Source: Candidatus Bipolaricaulota bacterium (lineage in GTDB: Bacteria; Bipolaricaulota; Bipolaricaulia; Bipolaricaulales; Bipolaricaulaceae). Taken from it: 64,000 nt of DNA. The notes under the pieces were generated by a model, which saw only the letters and a program-made list of their open reading frames with translations, searched no databases and was not told where the DNA came from. The DNA is taken from assembly GCA_014361015.1 (NCBI GenBank), contig JACIWJ010000001.1:7765-71764 (forward strand), read 5' to 3'. The position numbers and the translations under genes are program-made. Of this stretch, positions 1,195-53,923 are shown piece by piece; the first letter of the stretch is position 1, and the number at the start of each line of letters is the position of its first letter.

Positions 1195-1632
1195 TCACCG
1201 ATCGGCGCGCTCCGGGCGACGGAGGGTGATCCGGCGGCGGTCCTCGCCGGCGTGTTCCAAGGCGACCCAGATCGCCCCTGGGGGGATGAGATCCACGATC
1301 CGGTCCGCCCACTCCACCGCCGTGACCCCTTCCTCGGGGGGGAGAAGCTCGCCCAGCCCGACCTCGGACAGCTCACCGGGGGTGGTGATCCGGTAGGCAT
1401 CGAGGTGATGGAACCGGAGGCGCCCCTCGTAGCTCCGGGCGAGGAGGAAGCTCGGGGACAGGACAGGATCCCTCACGAACAGCCCCCGGGCGAGACCCCG
1501 GACGAACGTCGTCTTCCCCGCGCCGAGCTCCCCGACGAGGGCCACCACGTCCCCATCCGCGAGGCGGGCGGCGAGGCCGAACCCCACCTCTTCCGTCTCC
1601 TCCGGGCCGTGGGTGATGACGATTCGTTCCAT
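1195..1632 (-). CDS. tsaE: tRNA t6A37 biosynthesis ATPase TsaE (YjeE)
   Basis: P-loop GELGAGKTTFVRGLARGL in a 145-aa protein. It starts directly after the pheT stop codon. Confidence 0.85.
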   Translation of the reverse strand: MERIVITHGPEETEEVGFGLAARLADGDVVALVGELGAGKTTFVRGLARGLFVRDPVLSPSFLLARSYEGRLRFHHLDAYRITTPGELSEVGLGELLPPEEGVTAVEWADRIVDLIPPGAIWVALEHAGEDRRRITLRRPERADR

Positions 1633-4011
1633 CTAGGTCCGGATCCGCACCCCGCGGGGAACGAGGCGGGCGAGGATCCTCCCCACCGCCCCCTCGACCT
1701 CGTCCGAGGACAGGGTCCGCTCCGGGTCGCGGAACACGACCTCGTAGGTCAGGCTGAGGTGGCCGGCCGGGACGCCCTCGCCGCGGTAAAGGTCGTACAG
1801 GAACGCGCTCTCCACGAGCGGGTCAGCGAGGAGTTCCGCCCGGATGTCGCCCTCGGGAACGTCCTGCGGCACGAAGAGGGACAGGTCGCGTTTCGAGGCC
1901 GGGGACCGGGGGAGAGGACGGTGCGCGGGAGGGCGGGCCACCGCGCGGAGCGGGGAGAGGGCAAGCTCCAGCGCCAGCACCCGGCGCTCCCCCGGCAGGG
2001 TCGCCCTCAAGGAAGGGGAGAGCTCGCCGAGCCATCCGATCAGCGTCCGTGAACCGTGGTCCGTGGTCTGGGGGCCGTGGTCCGACGGTCCACGGGAGAG
2101 GTAGATCCCGGCGCGGCGGTGGGGGTGGAGGCGGGGGTCCTCGACCTCGCCCAGTTCGACCCCCTCCACCCGTAGGGCGGAGAGCAGGGCATCGAGAATT
2201 CCCTTCAGGTCAGCTGGGGAGTATTCCCCTTTCCCGGAGAGGGGGAGAGGGGGGCGGCCAGCGAGGACGATCCCGAGACGGTCCTCCTCCATCACGTGGC
2301 CATCCCGCTTTCGGAACACCCGTCCGACCTCGAACATGGCGACGCCCGGGGCCTGGGCGGCGAGGTTTTCCTGCACCCCACCAAGGAGCCCAGGCAGGAG
2401 ATCCGCCCTCAGCCCATCCCCCCCCTGGGCGAGGGGATTCCGCAACTTCACCTCGGCTCCTGTCGCCGGGACGAGGCCAGGGCTGTACGCCTCCAGGAGT
2501 CCCAGCGCGGCGAGGATATCCCGCACCCGATCGGCGAACGCTTCCCCGGGATCTTTCTTCCCGATCCGCGGCTCGACCCGAGGGGGGAGGGTGGGAACCC
2601 GGTCGTACCCGTACAGACGAGCCACCTCCTCGATGAGGTCGATCTCCCGCGCGAGGTCCTGTCGGAACGGCGGGATCGCGATTTCCCAACTCCCTTCCCG
2701 GTTATGGACGGTGAGCCCGAGGCGGGTGAGGCCATCTTCGACCTCGGCCGGCGGGACCTCGACCCCGAGGACCTCCGCCAGGCGTCGCTTGCGGAGGGGG
2801 ATCACCCAGGCCTTCGCGGGGGAGGGGTAGTTGTCCACCTCCCCGCGGGCGATGCGCACGGGGGCGTGGTAGGCGAGGAGGGTGCAGCAGCGGCGGGACG
2901 CGAGTTTCGCTGTCTCGGGGGACAATCCCCGCTCGAAGCGCAGGCTCGCCTCGGTGCGCAACCCAACTGCCCGCGAGGACCGCCGCACTCGAACGGGGGA
3001 GAACGCGGCCGCCTCGAGGAGGATGTCGCGGGTGTCGGGACTGACCTCGGTCTCCGCCCCTCCCATCACCCCTGCCACCGCCACCGGCCGCTGCCCGTCG
3101 GCGATCACGAGCACCTCGGAGGAGAGGTCCCGGTCCACCCCGTCCAGGGTCCGGATCCGCTCCCCGGGCCTCGCTCTCCGCACGACGATCCGTCCCTCGG
3201 CGAGCCTCCGTCGGTCGAACGCGTGAAGGGGGTGTCCCACCTCGAGGAGGACGTAGTTCGTGACGTCCACCACGAGCGAGAGGGGGCGCATCCCGGCCTT
3301 GAGGAGCCGGGCCTCGATCAGGAGCGGCGACGGGCGGTCGACGATCCCCTGGATGACGCGGGCCACGTAGCGGGGGCAGTCCGCCGGGTCCTCGATCTCG
3401 ACTGAGGTGAGGGTGGCCGCAGGGGGCTCCGCCTCCGGGTATGAGATCTCCGGCTCGCGGAGCGGGGTCCGGTACAGGGCGGAGATTTCGCGGGCGATCC
3501 CCAGGATCCCCAGGAGGTCGGGGCGGTTGGACGTGATCTTCAGGGAGAGGAGGGTGTCGGGGAGCCCGATCAGGGGTGCCAGGTCCGCCCCCACCGGAAG
3601 GTCGGCGGGGAGGTCCCACACCCCGGTCGATTTTGCCTCCAGGCCCAGTTCCTTCCGGGAGAGGAGCATCCCCTCGCTCTTCACGCCGCGGATCTTGGCC
3701 ACGGACACCTCCCCGCCTGGAAGGCGCGCTCCGGGGACGGCGAGAGGGAAGAGGCCTCCTGCCCGGACGTTTTCGGCACCGCAGACCACCGTCCGGTGGT
3801 CGTGCCCTGTCTCGACCTGGCACACGGAGAGGGTCCCCGCCTGAGGGTGGGGGTCGACCGACGCCACCCGGGCCACGACCACCCCTTCTGCGACGAGGTC
3901 CTCGATCCGCTCCACCTCGAGCCCGGCCAACGTCAGTCGCTCGGCGAGGGCCTCGGCCGGGATCTCCGGGAGGTTCACGTACTCGGAAAGCCAGTTCAGG
4001 GATGCCCGCAC
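1633..4011 (-). CDS. pheT: phenylalanine--tRNA ligase beta subunit
   Basis: 792 aa. The N-terminus (M)RASLNWLSEYV is typical of PheT, and tRNA-binding, B3/4 and B5 domain-like regions are recognisable. GTG start at 4011, TAG stop. Confidence 0.95.
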   Translation of the reverse strand: MRASLNWLSEYVNLPEIPAEALAERLTLAGLEVERIEDLVAEGVVVARVASVDPHPQAGTLSVCQVETGHDHRTVVCGAENVRAGGLFPLAVPGARLPGGEVSVAKIRGVKSEGMLLSRKELGLEAKSTGVWDLPADLPVGADLAPLIGLPDTLLSLKITSNRPDLLGILGIAREISALYRTPLREPEISYPEAEPPAATLTSVEIEDPADCPRYVARVIQGIVDRPSPLLIEARLLKAGMRPLSLVVDVTNYVLLEVGHPLHAFDRRRLAEGRIVVRRARPGERIRTLDGVDRDLSSEVLVIADGQRPVAVAGVMGGAETEVSPDTRDILLEAAAFSPVRVRRSSRAVGLRTEASLRFERGLSPETAKLASRRCCTLLAYHAPVRIARGEVDNYPSPAKAWVIPLRKRRLAEVLGVEVPPAEVEDGLTRLGLTVHNREGSWEIAIPPFRQDLAREIDLIEEVARLYGYDRVPTLPPRVEPRIGKKDPGEAFADRVRDILAALGLLEAYSPGLVPATGAEVKLRNPLAQGGDGLRADLLPGLLGGVQENLAAQAPGVAMFEVGRVFRKRDGHVMEEDRLGIVLAGRPPLPLSGKGEYSPADLKGILDALLSALRVEGVELGEVEDPRLHPHRRAGIYLSRGPSDHGPQTTDHGSRTLIGWLGELSPSLRATLPGERRVLALELALSPLRAVARPPAHRPLPRSPASKRDLSLFVPQDVPEGDIRAELLADPLVESAFLYDLYRGEGVPAGHLSLTYEVVFRDPERTLSSDEVEGAVGRILARLVPRGVRIRT

Positions 4012-47565: not shown

Positions 47566-50500
47566 GTGATCGACCAGGTGCGCAAGCGAGACGGGAGCGT
47601 TGTTCCATTCGAGAAGGAGAAGATCGCGGCTGCCATCCAGCGCGCCCTGGCCGAGGTGGGGCGCGACGATGCCCCGCTGGCGGCCGCGCTCGCGTCTCAG
47701 GTGGAACAGGCCCTCGCGCTCCGGTTCGGCCCCCTGTTCGGTCCCCCCCATGTGGAGGAGATCCAGGACGCGGTGGAGGAGGCCCTCATGGCCGCCGGCC
47801 TTCCCGATGCGGCGCGGGCGTACATCGTCTACCGCCACCAGCACAAGCAGCTTCGCGAGATCAAGGAGCTCGTCGATCCTGGGCTCGTGGGGAGCTACCT
47901 CAACGGCCAGGACTGGCGGGTGCGCGAGAACTCGAACATGGCGTTCTCCCTCCAAGGGCTGAACGTGTTCCTCACGGAGAAGATCATCGGCCAGTACTGG
48001 CTCACGAAGGTGTACCCAGACCCGATCCGCCGGGCGCACACCGAGGGTGACTTCCACATCCACGACCTCGGCACCCTGGGCCCGTACACCTACTACGGCA
48101 AGGAAGTGGTGGTCGCACGCCATGCGGGGCAACTGAAGGTCTGTTCGTTCGAACAGCTGTACGCGGGGTCAGCGGTCGAGGAGGTCCTCCTCTGCGAGGC
48201 TGACGGCGCGTACGCCAAGTTCCCGAACGACCTCTACGTCCTCGACAAGGACGGCTGGACACGCGTCACACGGCTCGTGCGGAAGGCCAAGCACCGCCCA
48301 ATGCGGTTCATCAAGAACCGGGGCGGGCGGAGCGTGATCGTGACCGACAACCACCCGATGATCGTTCCCCACGGGGAGAAGGAGGCCGTGGCCCTCAACG
48401 AGGGCGACCGCACGTTCACGGTGAGCTTGACGCGCCTGCTTGCCCACGAGAACTTGTTCTCCCAGAGCGAGCTCGACCTGGCGGAGGCGATCCGCGAGCG
48501 GGGGGCCGGTGGCCGGCCGGTGTACCTGGACGGAGTGCCCCTCTCGGAAGCGAGCGATGGCGACCTCCTCCACACCGCGAGCTCCTCGTTCCCCCGCCAC
48601 GTGCGGTTGACGGAAGGGTTCGGCTACTTCGTGGGCCTGACGTTGGCCGAGGGGTTCCTGTCCTATGACCGCAGGGGCAGCCGGGTCATCTCCATCACCC
48701 AGCGGGAGCGGGAGCGGTTGGTACGCGCCAACCGAGGCCTCCTGGACAATCGGACATCGGGTTGCCTGCGGTTGCGGGACGACGGCCGCTGGGAGCTGCG
48801 GGTGGCCAATCCGTTCCTGCGTTTTCTGTTCGAGCGGGTGTTCGAGATCCGGCCCGGCTCCCGTCACAAAACCCTCCCCGTCGGAATCCTGGGCTACAGC
48901 CGCAGCTTCGTCCAGGGCCTCATCGCTGGGTTGATCGATGGGGACGGGACGGTGGAGAGCTGCGGTACCCGACTGTCGCTGCGGGTTGCGGCGCGGAGCC
49001 TCCTCGAGCAGCTGGCGGTGGTGATGGAGCTCTTGGGCTTCATCCCCCGCGATCGGGCCCTGGAGGGCCAGGGGAGCCGCCGCTGGGCCCTCGGGCGGGC
49101 GATCGTTCAGAACCACCCGCTGTACGGGCTTTCGTTCAGCAAGACCCCGCTGGAGCTCCCTGGGGAGAAGTACCAGGAGGCGGCGGTGGCCACCAAGGCG
49201 TGGCACGACGCGGACCGCGACGAGTGGCACCGGGTGATCAACAACGACCCCGTGGACATCCCGGACGAGATCATCTACGACGTGACCACCGAGTCGGGCA
49301 CGCTGGTGGTGAACGGGATGTGGAACCACAACTGCGTGGGGTGGGACCTGGCGGACCTCCTGCGGCAGGGGTTCCGCGGGGCGCGGGGGAAGGTCGAATC
49401 GAGGCCACCGAAGCACTTCCGGGTGGCGCTCATGCAGGCGGTGAACTTCCTCTACACCCTCCAGGGCGAGGCCGCCGGCGCGCAGGCGTTCTCGGGCGTG
49501 GATACCCTCCTCGCCCCGTTCATCGCCGCCGACGGGCTGTCCTACCGCGAGGTCAAGCAGGCCCTCCAGGAGTTCGTCTACAACCTGAACGTACCCACCC
49601 GGGTGGGGTTCCAGACGCCGTTCACGAACATCACCCTCGACCTCCGGCCGCCGGCGCACATGGCTGCGCTGCCGGCCTTGGTGGGAGGGCAGCCGTTCGG
49701 CACGTACGGCGAGTTCACGAGGGAGATGGGTCTGTTCAACCGCGCTCTCGCCGAGGTGCTGACGGAGGGCGACGCCCGGGGGAGGGTGTTCACCTTCCCC
49801 ATCCCGACCTACAACGTGACGGGCGACTTCCCGTGGGACGATCCGAACCTCGTCCCGCTGTGGGAGATGACGGCCAAGTACGGGATCCCCTACTTCGCGA
49901 ACTTCCTCTCCTCGGACATGAAGCCGGAGGACGCCCGCAGCATGTGCTGCCGGCTCAGGCTCGACGTGCGCGAGCTCCGGCGCCGCGGGGGAGGGCTGTT
50001 TGGATCGAACCCCCTCACGGGTTCGATCGGCGTGGTGACCCTGAACCTGCCGCGGCTCGCGTTCCTCTCCAAGGGCGAGGACGAGTTCTTCGAGCGCCTG
50101 CAGGCGCTCATGCAGACCGCGGGACGATCGCTCATCATCAAGCGCAAGCTCCTGGAACGCCTCACCGAGCAGGGGCTGTACCCGTACTCCCAGTTCTACC
50201 TGTCCTCGGTCCGGGAGCAGCGAGGCGAGTACTGGGGGAACCACTTCTCCACGATCGGCGTGATCGGGCTGAACGAGGCCGCGCTGAACCTCGTCGGGGT
50301 CAACCTCGCCCACGAGGAGGGGATCCGGTTCGCGCGCCGGACCCTCCAGTTCATGCGCGAGACCCTCGTTCGGTTTCAGGAGGCGACCGGCCACCTGTGG
50401 AACCTCGAGGCGACCCCCGCCGAGGGGACGGCCTATCGGTTGGCGATGCTCGACCGGGCGCGCCATCCGGGGATCCGGGTTGCCAACGAGCACGCGGTGA

Positions 50501-50856
50501 GGGAGAAGGGGGCCGCGCCCTACTACACGAACTCGTCCCAGCTTCCGGTGGACTTCACCGACGACCTGTTTCGTGCCCTCAAGCTCCAGGAGCCACTCCA
50601 GACCCTGTACACCGGGGGGACCGTGTTCCACGCTTGGCTCGGGGAACGGCTTCCAGCGCCCGAAGCCGTGAAGTCCCTCGTGGCGAAGATCTTCGCGAAC
50701 TTCCGCATCCCCTATCTCACCCTCACCCCGACGTTCTCCGTATGTCCCCGGCACGGGTACCTTCCCGGGGAGAACCGCTATTGCCCCCAGTGCGACGAGG
50801 AGATCATCGTGCGCCATCAGAAGGCCCAAGGAGGCGTTTGTGTCCACGTACCGTGA
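47566..50856 (+). CDS. nrdD: anaerobic ribonucleoside-triphosphate reductase (class III) large fragment, with ATP-cone and an intein, lacking the glycyl-radical domain
   Basis: ATP-cone VRKRDGSVVPFEKEKI. GDFHIHDLGTLGPY ... CVGWDLADLL is interrupted by the intein. C-terminal Zn-ribbon remnant CPRHGY...CPQC. The frame ends 21 codons after CPQC without an RVxGY motif. GTG start after AAGGAGA. Confidence 0.9.
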   Translation: MIDQVRKRDGSVVPFEKEKIAAAIQRALAEVGRDDAPLAAALASQVEQALALRFGPLFGPPHVEEIQDAVEEALMAAGLPDAARAYIVYRHQHKQLREIKELVDPGLVGSYLNGQDWRVRENSNMAFSLQGLNVFLTEKIIGQYWLTKVYPDPIRRAHTEGDFHIHDLGTLGPYTYYGKEVVVARHAGQLKVCSFEQLYAGSAVEEVLLCEADGAYAKFPNDLYVLDKDGWTRVTRLVRKAKHRPMRFIKNRGGRSVIVTDNHPMIVPHGEKEAVALNEGDRTFTVSLTRLLAHENLFSQSELDLAEAIRERGAGGRPVYLDGVPLSEASDGDLLHTASSSFPRHVRLTEGFGYFVGLTLAEGFLSYDRRGSRVISITQRERERLVRANRGLLDNRTSGCLRLRDDGRWELRVANPFLRFLFERVFEIRPGSRHKTLPVGILGYSRSFVQGLIAGLIDGDGTVESCGTRLSLRVAARSLLEQLAVVMELLGFIPRDRALEGQGSRRWALGRAIVQNHPLYGLSFSKTPLELPGEKYQEAAVATKAWHDADRDEWHRVINNDPVDIPDEIIYDVTTESGTLVVNGMWNHNCVGWDLADLLRQGFRGARGKVESRPPKHFRVALMQAVNFLYTLQGEAAGAQAFSGVDTLLAPFIAADGLSYREVKQALQEFVYNLNVPTRVGFQTPFTNITLDLRPPAHMAALPALVGGQPFGTYGEFTREMGLFNRALAEVLTEGDARGRVFTFPIPTYNVTGDFPWDDPNLVPLWEMTAKYGIPYFANFLSSDMKPEDARSMCCRLRLDVRELRRRGGGLFGSNPLTGSIGVVTLNLPRLAFLSKGEDEFFERLQALMQTAGRSLIIKRKLLERLTEQGLYPYSQFYLSSVREQRGEYWGNHFSTIGVIGLNEAALNLVGVNLAHEEGIRFARRTLQFMRETLVRFQEATGHLWNLEATPAEGTAYRLAMLDRARHPGIRVANEHAVREKGAAPYYTNSSQLPVDFTDDLFRALKLQEPLQTLYTGGTVFHAWLGERLPAPEAVKSLVAKIFANFRIPYLTLTPTFSVCPRHGYLPGENRYCPQCDEEIIVRHQKAQGGVCVHVP
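48088..49332 (+). mobile_element. intein (415 aa) with LAGLIDADG homing endonuclease inside nrdD
   Basis: Block A-like TYYGKEVVV, block B VIVTDNHP, LAGLIDADG motifs (FVGLTLAEGF, LIAGLIDGDGTV), block F IIYDVTTESGTLVVNG, block G MWNHN followed by +1 Cys. Removing it joins ...LGPY to CVGWDL... Confidence 0.85.
50828..50842 (+). promoter_or_regulatory. Shine-Dalgarno AAGGAGG plus GTG start of the glycyl-radical ORF, inside the 3-prime end of nrdD
   Basis: AAGGAGG (50828-50834), 5-nt spacer CGTTT, GTG at 50840. The nrdD-frame TGA is at 50854-50856. Confidence 0.55.
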
Positions 50857-51046
50857 GGATGAACAGGGGAACTTGGTCCTCGAGGATGGAACGGTCATCC
50901 CGGAGACGGAGCGGACGAGAGCTGAGGTCTACTCTCGCGTCGTGGGCTACCTGCGCCCGGTGGAGCAGTGGAACGCGGGGAAGCAGGCCGAGTTCGTGGA
51001 TCGGAAGGTGTTCCGCCCCCCTCTCGGGGACGAGCGACCCGGCTAG
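50840..51046 (+). CDS. class III RNR glycyl-radical domain encoded as a separate 68-aa +1-frame ORF
   Basis: Contains EVYSRVVGYLRPVEQWNAGKQAEFVDRK, the canonical NrdD C-terminal glycyl radical motif (Gly codon at 50945-50947). Overlaps the nrdD end by 17 nt. Confidence 0.8.
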   Translation: MSTYREDEQGNLVLEDGTVIPETERTRAEVYSRVVGYLRPVEQWNAGKQAEFVDRKVFRPPLGDERPG

Positions 51047-51049
51047 CGG

Positions 51050-51814
51050 ATGGAGGTCGCCCATCTTCAGCCCCTCTCCCTCCTCGACTACCCGAGGCAG
51101 GTGGCGGCGGTGGTGTGGACGGTGGGGTGCAACCTCCGCTGTCCGTTCTGCTACAACGCTGAGCTCGTCCTGCCCGAGCTTGCTGTGGGTCTTCCGCGGC
51201 TCCCGGCGGACGGGCTGCTTGCTCGGCTGCGGGAGCGGGTGGGGTTCCTCGACGCGGTCGTCGTTACCGGGGGAGAACCCACCCTCAACGTCGATCTCCC
51301 TGGGTTCCTGCGGGAGCTGAAAGCGCTGGGATTCCTCGTCAAGCTCGACACGAACGGGACCCGTCCCGACGTCCTCCGGTCTCTGCTCGATGACGGGCTC
51401 GTGGACTACGTGGCCCTCGATGTCAAGGCGCCGTTCGCGCGGTACCCCGAGTTCACCGGCCTCCCGCCTGCGCTCTCTGTCGCGTCGGGGGTGGTTCCCG
51501 ACGGCCGTTCGGCGTCGGAGGGCATGTCCGATCTCGTGGTGCGGATTCGGGAGTCGATGGCCGTGGTCCGTGACCGCGCCCCCGACTACGAGTTCCGGAC
51601 CACGGTTGCCCCTGGGATCGCTCGGGAGGACCTGGTGGCGATCGCCGGCGAGATCCGTGGCGCCCGGCGCTACGCGCTCCAGCCGTTCTTCGTCCCCGCG
51701 GGGAAGCGGCTGCTAGACGAGACGTGGCGGGGGCGGCCCGCCCTACCGGCCGGCGAGCTGCGGAGGATCGTCCCCGAGCTTCAGAAGTTTGTGCTCACCG
51801 AACTCCGGGGTTAG
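51050..51814 (+). CDS. nrdG: anaerobic ribonucleotide reductase activating protein (radical SAM)
   Basis: LLDYPRQVAAVVWTVGCNLRCPFCYN (CxxxCxxC) and VVVTGGEPTL. Confidence 0.9.
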   Translation: MEVAHLQPLSLLDYPRQVAAVVWTVGCNLRCPFCYNAELVLPELAVGLPRLPADGLLARLRERVGFLDAVVVTGGEPTLNVDLPGFLRELKALGFLVKLDTNGTRPDVLRSLLDDGLVDYVALDVKAPFARYPEFTGLPPALSVASGVVPDGRSASEGMSDLVVRIRESMAVVRDRAPDYEFRTTVAPGIAREDLVAIAGEIRGARRYALQPFFVPAGKRLLDETWRGRPALPAGELRRIVPELQKFVLTELRG

Positions 51815-52785
51815 TCGAGTCCCACCCGGGCGCGGACCTCGCGCATCGTCTCCCGGGCGATCGCCCGCGCCCTCCCGGCGCCGTGGGCGAGGACCTCGTC
51901 CACGTCTCCGCGGGCGGTGAGCTCCTCTCGGCGCTCGCGGATCGGGCGCAGGGCGTCCGCGAGGTGGGTGAACAACGCCTCCTTGAGGTCGCGGTAGAGG
52001 AGTCTTCCCGCGTTGTGGTCGCGGCGGAACGTGTCCACGACCTCGGTTGGGGCCACGAGTTCAAGGAGGGAAAACAGGTTCGCGACCCCCGGGGACATCT
52101 CCTGGCCCGGGGTGAGCCCGACGTCGGTCACCGCCGACCGGACCTTCTTGCGAACGCTCTCCTCCGGTTCCATGAGGCCGATGTAGTGGTCCGGGCCGGC
52201 GGACTTGCTCATCTTCCGCGCCGGATCGGCCAACGACATGATCCGTGCCCCCTCTCCGACGATCGGCTCCGGCTCGGGGAACGTGTCCCCGAACCGGAAG
52301 TTGAACCGCCGGGCGATCCGCCGCGCCTCCTCCAGGTGCTGGACCTGGTCCTCCCCCACCGGGACGTGGTCAGCGTGGAAGAGGAGGATGTCCGCGGCCT
52401 GGAGGACGGGGTAGTAGAACAGCCCGCCGTTGACGAACTCCTGGCGGGCGGACTTCTCCTTGAACTGGGTCATCCGCGTCAGGTCGCCGTAGGAGGCGAC
52501 ACAGCCCAGGATCCAGCACAGCTCCGTGTGCTCGGGGACCGCGGACTGCACGTAGAGGATCGAGCGTTCGGGATCCACGCCGCAGGCAAGGAGGTCGAGG
52601 GCGAGTTCCCGCCGCGCCGCGCGGAGCTCGGCCGGCACCGTGTCCTCGTTCGTGAGGGCGTGGTAGTCGACGATGGAGTAGATGCAGTCGTTCCGCTCCT
52701 GGAGCTCGACCCAGCGCCGGATCGCCCCGAAGTAGTTCCCGATGTGAAGCGCGCCGGTCGGTTGGATGCCTGAGAAGATGCGCAT
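51811..52785 (-). CDS. trpS: tryptophan--tRNA ligase
   Basis: MRIFSGIQPTGALHIGNY (HIGH) and KMSKS motifs, 324 aa. Confidence 0.95.
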   Translation of the reverse strand: MRIFSGIQPTGALHIGNYFGAIRRWVELQERNDCIYSIVDYHALTNEDTVPAELRAARRELALDLLACGVDPERSILYVQSAVPEHTELCWILGCVASYGDLTRMTQFKEKSARQEFVNGGLFYYPVLQAADILLFHADHVPVGEDQVQHLEEARRIARRFNFRFGDTFPEPEPIVGEGARIMSLADPARKMSKSAGPDHYIGLMEPEESVRKKVRSAVTDVGLTPGQEMSPGVANLFSLLELVAPTEVVDTFRRDHNAGRLLYRDLKEALFTHLADALRPIRERREELTARGDVDEVLAHGAGRARAIARETMREVRARVGLD

Positions 52786-53923
52786 GGATCCCTCCCTGAG
52801 GCGGGAAGTATAGATGGGCTCCGGTCAGGTCACAAGGCAAAGCTCTGCCAGCCAGGGCGCTCGGTGCGGTTCGCACGTCGCGCTGGATGTAGTGGGCCAA
52901 GAGATCGTTACCACCTCTGAGGGCCCAGTCGGCACTGATCCGGTCGAGCACCAGAGGCGGGAACAGCGCGAACTCGCGGGGTAGATCGTAGCCCAGCTCC
53001 TGTAGCACCTGGAACGGTGGTTTCCCGTCCATCCCCGCCCCGTAGTGCGGCCGCTCCAGGTGGTAGTAGTACACCCAGCCCGCAGCCTTGTGGAGGAACC
53101 CCGCTTCCGTCCGCACCTTGTCCAGGAACGGCAGGTAGAACTCCTCGTCGTCCGTGCGGTGGGAGCGCTCCACCCGACCGTTGTGTTCTTTCTTCCCCAG
53201 CGGGATCCGGGCCAGCCTCACCTCCAGGGGAGCGTAGTGCTTCTCCTGGAGCCGGTGGAGCTTCTGGGGGTTACTGCCCCCGAACTCTTCCCCCCAGTCC
53301 GTCTGCCACGCCAGTTCTCCCTCGATCCCGTGTCCCCTAACCCACAGCATCACCAGTCCCATGAAGCACAACCCGTTGGTCAACGTGATCTCGTGGCTCC
53401 ACGCCAGGAACCGCAGCCTCGTCCGTCCCTCGAGGAACGTCCACTGGTACCGGGGAAGCTTCCGTTTCGCCAGATGATCCCAGAGCTTCGTTCCCAGCGC
53501 CCCCTTGTCGAGCACGTCCTTCACGTCCACCTGGGCGAGGGTGAACGGCTTCTCTTCCTCCCACGCCCAGGAGGCAGGGTAGAACGTCTTCCTCTTCGTC
53601 TTGTGCCCCCTGAACCCGTTCCGACGGAGGATGTGGCGGATCGTGTGGGGGGCGAGGACGAGCCCCTTCTCCCGCCACAGGTACCAGGCAAGCCTCTTCC
53701 GGCCGTAGCCCGTGGCCTTCTTGGCTTCGAGAACCGCGGCCTCGATCTGGGCCACGGTCTGGGTGGGACAGTGGCGGGGACGACGCGAGCGATCCCCAAG
53801 TCCTGCCGCCCCTCCCGTGCGGTAGCGCTGTACCCACTTCCGGACGAGGTTTCGGGACGTGTGCCACCTCCGGGCGGTCTCGGCGATGCTCCCCGTCTGC
53901 AGGTACGTCTCGACCAGCCTCAT
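52370..53923 (-). CDS. IS481-family DDE transposase; the ORF has no stop inside the element and runs on into the trpS 5-prime region in another frame
   Basis: N-terminal HTH GSIAETARRWHTSRNLVRKWVQRY...RSRRP and rve-type catalytic regions (QVDVKD, WQTDWGEEF, NGRVERSH). Homology-like sequence ends near GGNDLLAHY, at about 52890 inside the right IR. Confidence 0.85.
   Translation of the reverse strand: MRLVETYLQTGSIAETARRWHTSRNLVRKWVQRYRTGGAAGLGDRSRRPRHCPTQTVAQIEAAVLEAKKATGYGRKRLAWYLWREKGLVLAPHTIRHILRRNGFRGHKTKRKTFYPASWAWEEEKPFTLAQVDVKDVLDKGALGTKLWDHLAKRKLPRYQWTFLEGRTRLRFLAWSHEITLTNGLCFMGLVMLWVRGHGIEGELAWQTDWGEEFGGSNPQKLHRLQEKHYAPLEVRLARIPLGKKEHNGRVERSHRTDDEEFYLPFLDKVRTEAGFLHKAAGWVYYYHLERPHYGAGMDGKPPFQVLQELGYDLPREFALFPPLVLDRISADWALRGGNDLLAHYIQRDVRTAPSALAGRALPCDLTGAHLYFPPQGGIHAHLLRHPTDRRASHRELLRGDPALGRAPGAERLHLLHRRLPRPHERGHGAGRAPRGAAGTRPRPPCLRRGSRTLDPLRAVRGPRAHGAVLDPGLCRLLRRPDADDPVQGEVRPPGVRQRRAVLLPRPPGRGHPPLPR
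52892..52913. repeat. IS481-like terminal inverted repeat (trpS-proximal)
   Basis: GTGGGCCAAGAGATCGTTACCA is complementary to 54065-54086 at 20 of 22 positions (checked base by base). Confidence 0.7.

Follow-up and report, generated by a model that had tools for sequence, protein, structure and literature searches.

A probable two-subunit class III ribonucleotide reductase with its glycyl-radical domain encoded as a separate small protein in Bipolaricaulota and Caldisericota

The anaerobic (class III) ribonucleotide reductase (RNR) locus considered here lies in a stretch of 64,000 nt from Candidatus Bipolaricaulota bacterium (GCA_014361015.1, contig JACIWJ010000001.1, positions 7,765-71,764), hereafter the window. 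Its nrdD frame closes before the glycyl-radical motif, which is encoded instead by a separate 68-aa open reading frame (ORF2) situated between nrdD and the activase gene nrdG. This arrangement very probably represents a conserved, naturally split two-subunit class III RNR of Bipolaricaulota and Caldisericota, whose radical domain would be supplied in trans. An initial annotation, made from the letters of the window, had proposed such a two-polypeptide enzyme, and the proposal is now supported by Caldisericota loci in which the genes are separated, by conservation of the small protein and by the selection acting upon it. The elements of the locus are as follows.

47566..50856, + strand: nrdD large subunit, a 1096-aa precursor, about 681 aa without its intein (from the ORF list)
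47575..47850, + strand: ATP-cone domain, residues 4-95 (Pfam PF03477, E 6e-23, 82 bits)
49945..49950, + strand: Cys794-Cys795 of the SMCCRL stretch, read from the translation
50743..50793, + strand: zinc-ribbon ligands C-x2-H-x9-C-x2-C (CPRH...CPQC), from the sequence and the ligand columns of alignment A1
50794..50853, + strand: large-subunit tail DEEIIVRHQKAQGGVCVHVP, found only in split forms (tails of at least 20 loci)
50828..50834, + strand: Shine-Dalgarno (SD) sequence AAGGAGG of the small subunit, lying within Gln/Lys-Gly-Gly codons of the large-subunit frame
50840..51046, + strand: small glycyl-radical subunit gene (ORF2), 68 aa, GTG start, in the +1 frame with a 17-nt overlap with the end of nrdD (ORF list, Pfam)
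50840..50923, + strand: N-terminal extension of the small subunit, residues 1-28, motif YREDExGNLVLEDGTVIP (alignments A2 and A3)
50945..50947, + strand: codon of Gly36 (RVVG36Y), the glycine predicted to bear the radical, a column invariant in alignment A3
51050..51814, + strand: nrdG, radical-SAM activating enzyme, 254 aa (TIGR02495 NrdG2, Pfam Radical_SAM)

The large subunit contains an ATP-cone, a catalytic barrel, a zinc ribbon and a 20-aa tail, and the glycyl-radical motif is absent from it. Its frame ends ...CPQCDEEIIVRHQKAQGGVCVHVP-TGA (also given as ...SVCPRHGYLPGENRYCPQCDEEIIVRHQKAQGGVCVHVP-TGA), with the stop at 50854-50856, 20 residues past the zinc-ribbon CPQC. No RVxGY occurs in this frame, just as the initial annotation had read it, and the sole RVxGY of the window is that of ORF2. 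The remainder of that reading is likewise present in the sequence: AAGGAGG is separated by the 5-nt spacer CGTTT from a GTG at 50840, from which a 68-aa protein of 7.6 kDa bearing the radical motif (MSTYREDEQGNLVLEDGTVIPETERTRAEVYSRVVGYLRPVEQWNAGKQAEFVDRKVFRPPLGDERPG) is encoded, and the ATG of nrdG follows at 51050, 3 nt past the ORF2 stop. No terminator-like sites were seen between nrdD, ORF2 and nrdG, and because ORF2 starts inside the last 17 nt of nrdD the two are probably translationally coupled. Gene callers dispute the start of the small gene, placing it at TTG 50873 or at GTG 50840; GenBank record P0123 holds a 57-aa version that begins MVLEDG, and the gene of a metagenomic relative, L001, was likewise called as 57 aa. 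The 68-aa product is favoured because the upstream STYREDEQGN codons are conserved and the position of the SD fits.

Assignment of the large ORF to class III rests on scores above the cut-offs of two NrdD models (934 bits against NCBIfam NF006126, cut-off 548, with an alignment that stops at profile position 659 of 684; 479 bits against TIGR02487, cut-off 326), on the zinc-ribbon ligand set and on the radical-SAM activase alongside, NrdG scoring 187 bits against TIGR02495 NrdG2 (cut-off 131). The feature of class III enzymes that it lacks is an RVxGY at the C-terminus of the polypeptide that carries the barrel. As in other genes in pieces, the two ORFs jointly span a single model, Pfam NRDD, the large one matching profile positions 53-532 of 562 (562 bits) and ORF2 positions 532-562 (E 2.4e-9; 36.9 bits, cut-off 26.2), and both are conserved. 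The Pfam and NCBIfam matches of ORF2 are to NrdD models only, with no homology to the Gly_radical domain of pyruvate formate-lyase (PFL) type, and neither Pfam nor NCBIfam 20.0 holds a dedicated model for the small protein.

The break lies ahead of the glycyl loop and directly behind the last zinc-ribbon CxxC, which is kept on the large subunit. In alignment A1 the C, H, C and C columns of the ribbon are invariant, and the ribbon is the last element common to fused NrdDs before the split. The initial annotation had noted that only a few residues separate CPxCG from EVYSR in NrdDs, against about 130 nt here; A1 agrees, the spacing from CPxC to EVYSR being roughly 2-12 residues in most fused relatives, and by this alignment the extra sequence of about 130 nt at the window junction is real. 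A Zn motif has been described for the Thermotoga maritima enzyme, as has an SCCR motif near its finger loop (PMC4493059); judged by sequence, the SMCCRL cysteine pair of the window corresponds to the latter, with a putative role for the cysteines.

The same two ORFs, of 1096 and 68 aa, occur in identical form in three independent assemblies, namely one GenBank metagenome-assembled genome (MAG; GCA_054680615.1) and two Logan assemblies of different sequencing runs (SRR28822788 and SRR24635345). The relative L001, at about 80% aa identity, has the same layout, with a large frame that ends ...CPKCDEELIVSYQKAQGGVCAHIS-TGA (GGVCAHIS-TGA), an AAGGAGG, a GTG and a 68-aa ORF. Its junction reads GTCTG where the window has GTTTG, so that there is no homopolymer at the junction. 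Comparison of the two also shows how the frames are used. On the 5' side of the GTG the substitutions are synonymous in the nrdD frame, whereas on the 3' side the two changes at third positions leave the amino acids of the ORF2 frame unaltered and are replacements in the nrdD frame; selection therefore switches frame at the GTG.

A homologue search with the 68-aa protein yielded 234 clusters at 90% identity. Members of the 120 clusters listed stand alone and are 41-108 aa long, mostly 56-82 aa, and the homologues listed have in common the motif xYREDExGNLVLEDGTVIPxxxRxxAEVYSRVVGYLRPVxQWNxGKQxEF; several come from sources named Candidatus Bipolaricaulota or Acetothermia, and the label 'hypothetical protein' is given to the small protein in at least two GenBank records. 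When one genome per species (GTDB representatives) was scanned with a pattern from the extension alone, 30 loci were obtained, including one false positive (L034). The 29 true loci belong to Bipolaricaulota/Acetothermia, to Caldisericota and to one Omnitrophota MAG; several are titled Thermotogae or Thermotoga in their records, with a layout the same as that of Bipolaricaulota/Acetothermia. In 23 of 24 loci a GTG, ATG or TTG start has a GGAGG 5-8 nt to its 5' side. GGA accounts for 9 of the 116 glycine codons of nrdD and nrdG in the window, and the SD nonetheless uses it. Among eight Bipolaricaulota loci the pairwise ratio of nonsynonymous to synonymous substitution (dN/dS) is 0.02-0.19 for ORF2, at dS 0.25-1.9, and 0.03-0.40 for the extension alone. 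ORF2 is thus under strong purifying selection in its own frame.

Two loci are unusual in their surroundings. In the Omnitrophota MAG (L023, ~1300..1560) what precedes the small gene is, as judged by eye, not nrdD but an apparent IS200/IS605-type TnpB C-terminus (...CDTCGLVLDRDLNAAINL...). On contig DSBZ01000253.1 the same nrdD-small gene-nrdG locus stands in inverted orientation at both ends of 29 kb (L011, 1-3634; L012, 25759-29392 reversed), a duplication that is probably an assembly artefact in the form of a palindromic contig.

The relative placement of the two genes carries the case for action in trans. The 22 examined loci of Bipolaricaulota each place the small ORF in the +1 frame, with 11, 17, 20, 23 or 29 nt of it shared with nrdD. 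The Caldisericota orthologues are placed otherwise. In a Caldisericales locus (L031) 11 nt separate the two genes, which also stand in another relative frame. In a Caldisericaceae locus (L016) the order is nrdD, thyX, small gene, bioY, and the 607-aa nrdD product, which matches Pfam NRDD over positions 1-538 of 562, ends CPYCDEELANKATRAEASENEKPKFIINL. In Caldisericum sp. (L035-L037) nrdD encodes 678 aa ending CPYCDEKMAQKEDNSNAPKFFVK, without RVxGY, and thyX and then six other genes come after it; the 68-aa gene, which has a GGAGG and an ATG to itself, is found 6.7 kb and seven genes downstream of nrdD, where it adjoins an nrdG on the other strand. Because these genes are physically separate from nrdD, the Caldisericota small proteins must be translated independently, and because no frameshift from nrdD is possible and the partner nrdD has no radical domain, they must act in trans. 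The window ORF2, which is like them in both extension and core, is by sequence their orthologue. Wherever the C-terminus of the large subunit is readable (window, L001, L005-L013, L016-L019, L022-L032, L035), the radical domain is absent from it.

Searches for a fused counterpart point the same way. A HMMER profile scan of 1.84 billion representative proteins brought up no fused NrdD with the 28-aa extension among the best 150 matches listed; the listed matches that cover the extension are all stand-alone proteins of 60-123 aa, and all retrieved sequences start with Met. The split thus survives the check for fused relatives with the same insertion. A search with the conceptually fused C-terminus returned only relatives without the insertion, at no more than 55% identity over the full query, together with one closer match, the truncated L001 protein.

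The two additions that distinguish the split form, a tail on the large subunit and an extension on the small one, have recognizable patterns. The tails, of 20-32 aa across the split forms and absent from fused relatives, consist of DEE[LI], a hydrophilic linker and a short alternating hydrophobic stretch, for example VCVHV, IKVEL, FIINL, FKINL or FFVK. AlphaFold2, run with the family alignment, gave the small protein a mean pLDDT (predicted local distance difference test) of 86 and the extension values of 88-95, with predicted strands at residues 4-6, 12-14, 28-32 and 37-40 and a helix at 46-51. In a PDB profile match only profile positions 24-58 are aligned with the solved T. maritima NrdD, so that the extension has no counterpart there, and the Gly36 motif aligns with RIVGY of that enzyme, whose radical site is Gly621 (PMC4493059). 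Foldseek comparison of the isolated small-subunit model with the PDB gave nothing significant (best E 5.1). Tail and beta-hairpin extension would clasp the two proteins together. A split-intein or trans-splicing origin of the two additions was also considered, the A3 profile having weakly matched the Npu DnaE intein chains 4LX3 and 4QFQ (E 0.23-0.25), evidently by chance; it is ruled out by the small total of about 48 aa, by the absence of His-Asn before the junction and by the lack of a nucleophile at +1.

Glycyl-radical enzymes are described as single chains, in which a buried C-terminal domain swings out for activation, and the one free-standing radical domain known, GrcA/YfiD, serves PFL as a repair part (PMC8683613). 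In the split enzyme proposed here, the large subunit would supply the ATP-cone, the barrel with SMCCRL and the zinc ribbon, while the glycyl-radical loop (RVVG36Y) and the C-terminal helix would be made as a separate 68-residue protein from their own SD and GTG. NrdG, encoded in the same operon, would place the radical on Gly36 of the small protein, and the loop of the latter would be inserted into the large-subunit barrel, as the attached domain is in fused enzymes. A detachable radical piece may ease activation, and the cell may be able to replace an oxygen-cleaved 7.6-kDa peptide, sparing the whole enzyme. A more elaborate form of the scheme, possible but rather doubtful, would make the small protein an exchangeable radical cartridge: NrdG would charge the free peptide without pulling a buried domain from the barrel, and the peptide would dock via the tail-extension clasp and be swapped after oxygen cleavage or loss of the radical.

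Several considerations weigh against the split-enzyme interpretation. All members of the family are known from sequence alone, and the complex of the two subunits is a prediction. The genome may carry a second, full-length nrdD outside the window, which is 64 kb long; the intein of this copy, which begins with Thr, could impair it even if the split architecture works in general; and with the +1 overlap uniform in Bipolaricaulota, a frameshifted fusion product of some kind is formally conceivable there. That uniformity could be inheritance from one ancestor.

If a full-length NrdD were indeed encoded elsewhere, the 68-aa protein might only rescue oxygen-damaged enzyme, in the manner of GrcA/YfiD, the autonomous glycyl-radical spare part of PFL (PMC8683613, PMC13450708), to which the initial annotation had likened it. 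The resemblance is considerable. GrcA, phage T4 Y06I and the window protein are all small and free-standing and are essentially a glycyl-radical domain; GrcA and the window protein are both presumably activated by the parent's activase and would work by insertion into the parent's barrel; and the window protein has its own SD and start, with orthologues that are partly unlinked from nrdD. With 64 kb of the genome in view, a second nrdD could escape notice. GrcA, however, is homologous to the C-terminus of PFL, comes into action only once oxygen has done damage, and is found together with a PFL that is itself equipped with a radical domain, whereas the window protein is homologous to NrdD and its parent keeps no radical domain, nor does any relative's nrdD with a readable C-terminus. 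No second RVxGY is present in the window. Because the partner nrdD has no radical domain, the small protein would be the primary radical site of its enzyme and an obligatory subunit. A spare-part role is accordingly improbable: the analogy holds for the free-standing radical domain and fails for the word spare, this being the only radical domain its enzyme has.

Slightly less probable still is a programmed +1 frameshift or bypass near 50836-50853 that would yield a conventional fused NrdD with a 48-residue insertion, an alternative that the initial annotation had raised while noting that no prfB-like slippery site is visible. The constant +1 overlap (22 of 22 Bipolaricaulota loci examined) is what such a mechanism would give, and the SD-like AAGGAGG just upstream loosely recalls the prfB stimulator. 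The junction nucleotides, however, vary freely among loci, as the spacers CGTTT, AGTCT, CATAT, AGTTC, GCTGT, CATCACCA and CATAAAAG attest, with no conserved slippery or hungry codon, which bears out the earlier observation. In prfB-type sites the SD lies ~3 nt upstream of a shift-prone codon; here no such codon is conserved, and the SD is followed after 5-8 nt by a start codon (GTG, ATG or TTG), always present at a fixed distance from it. A stop interrupts the ORF2 frame no more than two codons before the start in L019 and L025-L030, RNA folding at the junction is at the level of shuffled sequence (z = 0.07), the Caldisericota orthologues lie in another frame with a gap, behind thyX or 6.7 kb off, and a fused protein with the insertion was not found in the databases searched. 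Transcriptional slippage was rejected on similar grounds, there being no conserved slippery site or homopolymer.

A decayed gene, in which nrdD was inactivated by a frameshift mutation and the odd intein is one more symptom, would also account for the interrupted frame, and it too had been put forward by the initial annotation. The intein is the following element.

48088..49332, + strand: LAGLIDADG intein of 415 aa, nrdD residues 175-589 (Pfam LAGLIDADG_3 and Intein_splicing; global alignment with the intein-free NrdD of L016)

Inteins usually begin with Cys or Ser, and this one begins with Thr. It is nonetheless a precise insertion, exactly between GPY and CVGWDL, with an intact block B TxxH (TDNH), a C-terminal His-Asn and Cys+1. 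Of the related genes, only that of L005 shares it, 14 others being uninterrupted at the site, so that its invasion is recent. The intein is real, and it represents a separate recent invasion with intact splicing residues instead of decay. Pseudogenization is contradicted, in addition, by the identical interruption kept across two phyla and more than 200 sequence clusters, by dN/dS of about 0.1 at dS up to 1.9, by the conserved ribosome-binding site and start codon, by an nrdG that is kept and intact, and by the 934 bits that the large ORF reaches against its equivalog model. The pseudogene explanation is very unlikely, ruled out in effect by selection and conservation.

A sequencing or assembly error, in which one extra base in the GTTTG run would hide a gene of single frame, has a negligible likelihood: deleting one base at 50837-50839 would indeed give one open frame, but the agreement of the three assemblies contradicts it, relatives keep the same two-frame layout while reading GTCTG, ATATG or GTTCG at the junction, and the conceptually fused protein is without a homologue, so that independent sequencing restores no single frame of the kind that the indel envisaged in the initial annotation would require.

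Detached NrdD radical domains of other kinds were encountered as well. In L040 (1380..1623) nrdD is minimally split, the large subunit ending CPKCDKEIGFKGGN-TAA with AAGGAGG embedded, and the likely small protein starts MSENKERTRCEVYSRVVGY, without the NLVLEDGTVIP extension; this minimal form points to more than one splitting event at the junction behind the zinc ribbon. L038 (2854..3126) encodes a 90-aa stand-alone NrdD-type radical protein with a Cys-rich N-terminus (C..HEHC...CHDC), among small ORFs without Pfam match and a MerR-like gene, on a 4.4-kb contig that looks phage-like and on which no nrdD is visible, and in L039 a stand-alone NrdD-type radical protein with a different N-terminus lies behind thyX. 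Since such proteins carry other N-termini (L038, L039, L040), detached NrdD radical domains are probably a broader phenomenon than this one family. The gene thyX, for flavin-dependent thymidylate synthase (L016, 1863..2486; L035, 3305..3940; L039, 158..730), stands repeatedly right after the large nrdD or right before the small gene, in Caldisericota and on one unassigned metagenome contig; its placement may hint at how the pieces separated, or at an operon for dNTP (deoxyribonucleoside triphosphate) synthesis.

Two Caldisericales MAGs (L014, L015) show a break in the small gene itself, placed directly behind the radical glycine (...VYSRVVG followed by TAA), and the frame resumes ~225 nt later with (Y)LRPVSQWN (L014: gene 2571..2750, intron ~2603..2830). 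At gathering thresholds Rfam gave no matches in the Caldisericota loci, and the L014 intron was seen only in an E-value search, where the stretch scored 29.6 bits against Intron_gpI (gathering score 50; E 6.7e-6). Because the predicted splice sites obey the group I rule, with a U preceding the 5' site and a G at the 3' end, a group I intron would lie in the Gly-Tyr codons of the radical motif. A further mobile element of the window lies beyond nrdG.

52370..53923, - strand: IS481-like transposase ORF (HTH_28/HTH_32 and rve_3 integrase core), which abuts trpS, its open frame overlapping the trpS start

On the collinear contig L002 a Crp-family regulator gene follows trpS in this position, so that the insertion differs between closely related genomes.

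Set beside known enzymes, the window system shares with canonical class III NrdD-NrdG (T. maritima NrdD, PDB 4COI/4U3E, RNRdb subclass NrdDh; phage T4 and E. coli NrdD) the barrel, the SMCCR stretch, the C-x-H...CxxC zinc ribbon, the RVVGY loop and an NrdG2-type activase. It differs in that the glycyl loop, the covalent C-terminus of all described enzymes, is here a separate gene product, and in that the canonical enzymes have no counterpart of the 20-32 aa tail or the 28-aa extension. Split RNRs of other classes are known: the class II NrdJa/NrdJb of Pseudomonas aeruginosa and Thermus phage phiYS40 (PMC4520616, PMC3653736) and the class Ia NrdA-a/NrdA-b of Aeromonas phage Aeh1, whose split was caused by a homing-endonuclease gene (PMC3653736). 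In these, as in the window, the catalytic chain is encoded by two consecutive ORFs, and their products assemble non-covalently into active enzyme; the split positions are different, however, the radical-storing element is not separated, and the window junction, unlike that of Aeh1, is without a mobile element. Phage nrdD genes also occur in pieces, interrupted by a group I intron in T4 and fragmented in Aeromonas phage phiAS4 (PMC3653736), but these are cases of rejoining by RNA splicing or of isolated, unexplained fragmentation in single phages, whereas the architecture described here is a conserved two-protein one in cellular lineages. The initial annotation had supposed a two-polypeptide class III RNR to be novel, and no description of one, or of a free NrdD radical domain, was found in the open-access literature; mention elsewhere, for example in RNRdb notes, is possible.

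According to a review of June 2026, formate lyases are the only enzymes with known spare-part proteins, and their existence for other glycyl-radical enzymes is yet to be determined (PMC13450708). The cartridge, if true, would give a positive answer as to spare-part-like proteins outside the formate lyases, and would be the first case of a glycyl-radical enzyme that has an obligatory, diffusible protein subunit as its radical cofactor. The small subunit would be a minimal natural substrate for an activase, and the split enzyme would separate radical installation from catalysis and allow a test of subunit exchange as an oxygen defence. Annotation pipelines, moreover, may take a large subunit that stops short of the radical domain for a truncated one, and anaerobic dNTP synthesis could be mistaken for a broken pathway in reconstructions for Bipolaricaulota and Caldisericota.

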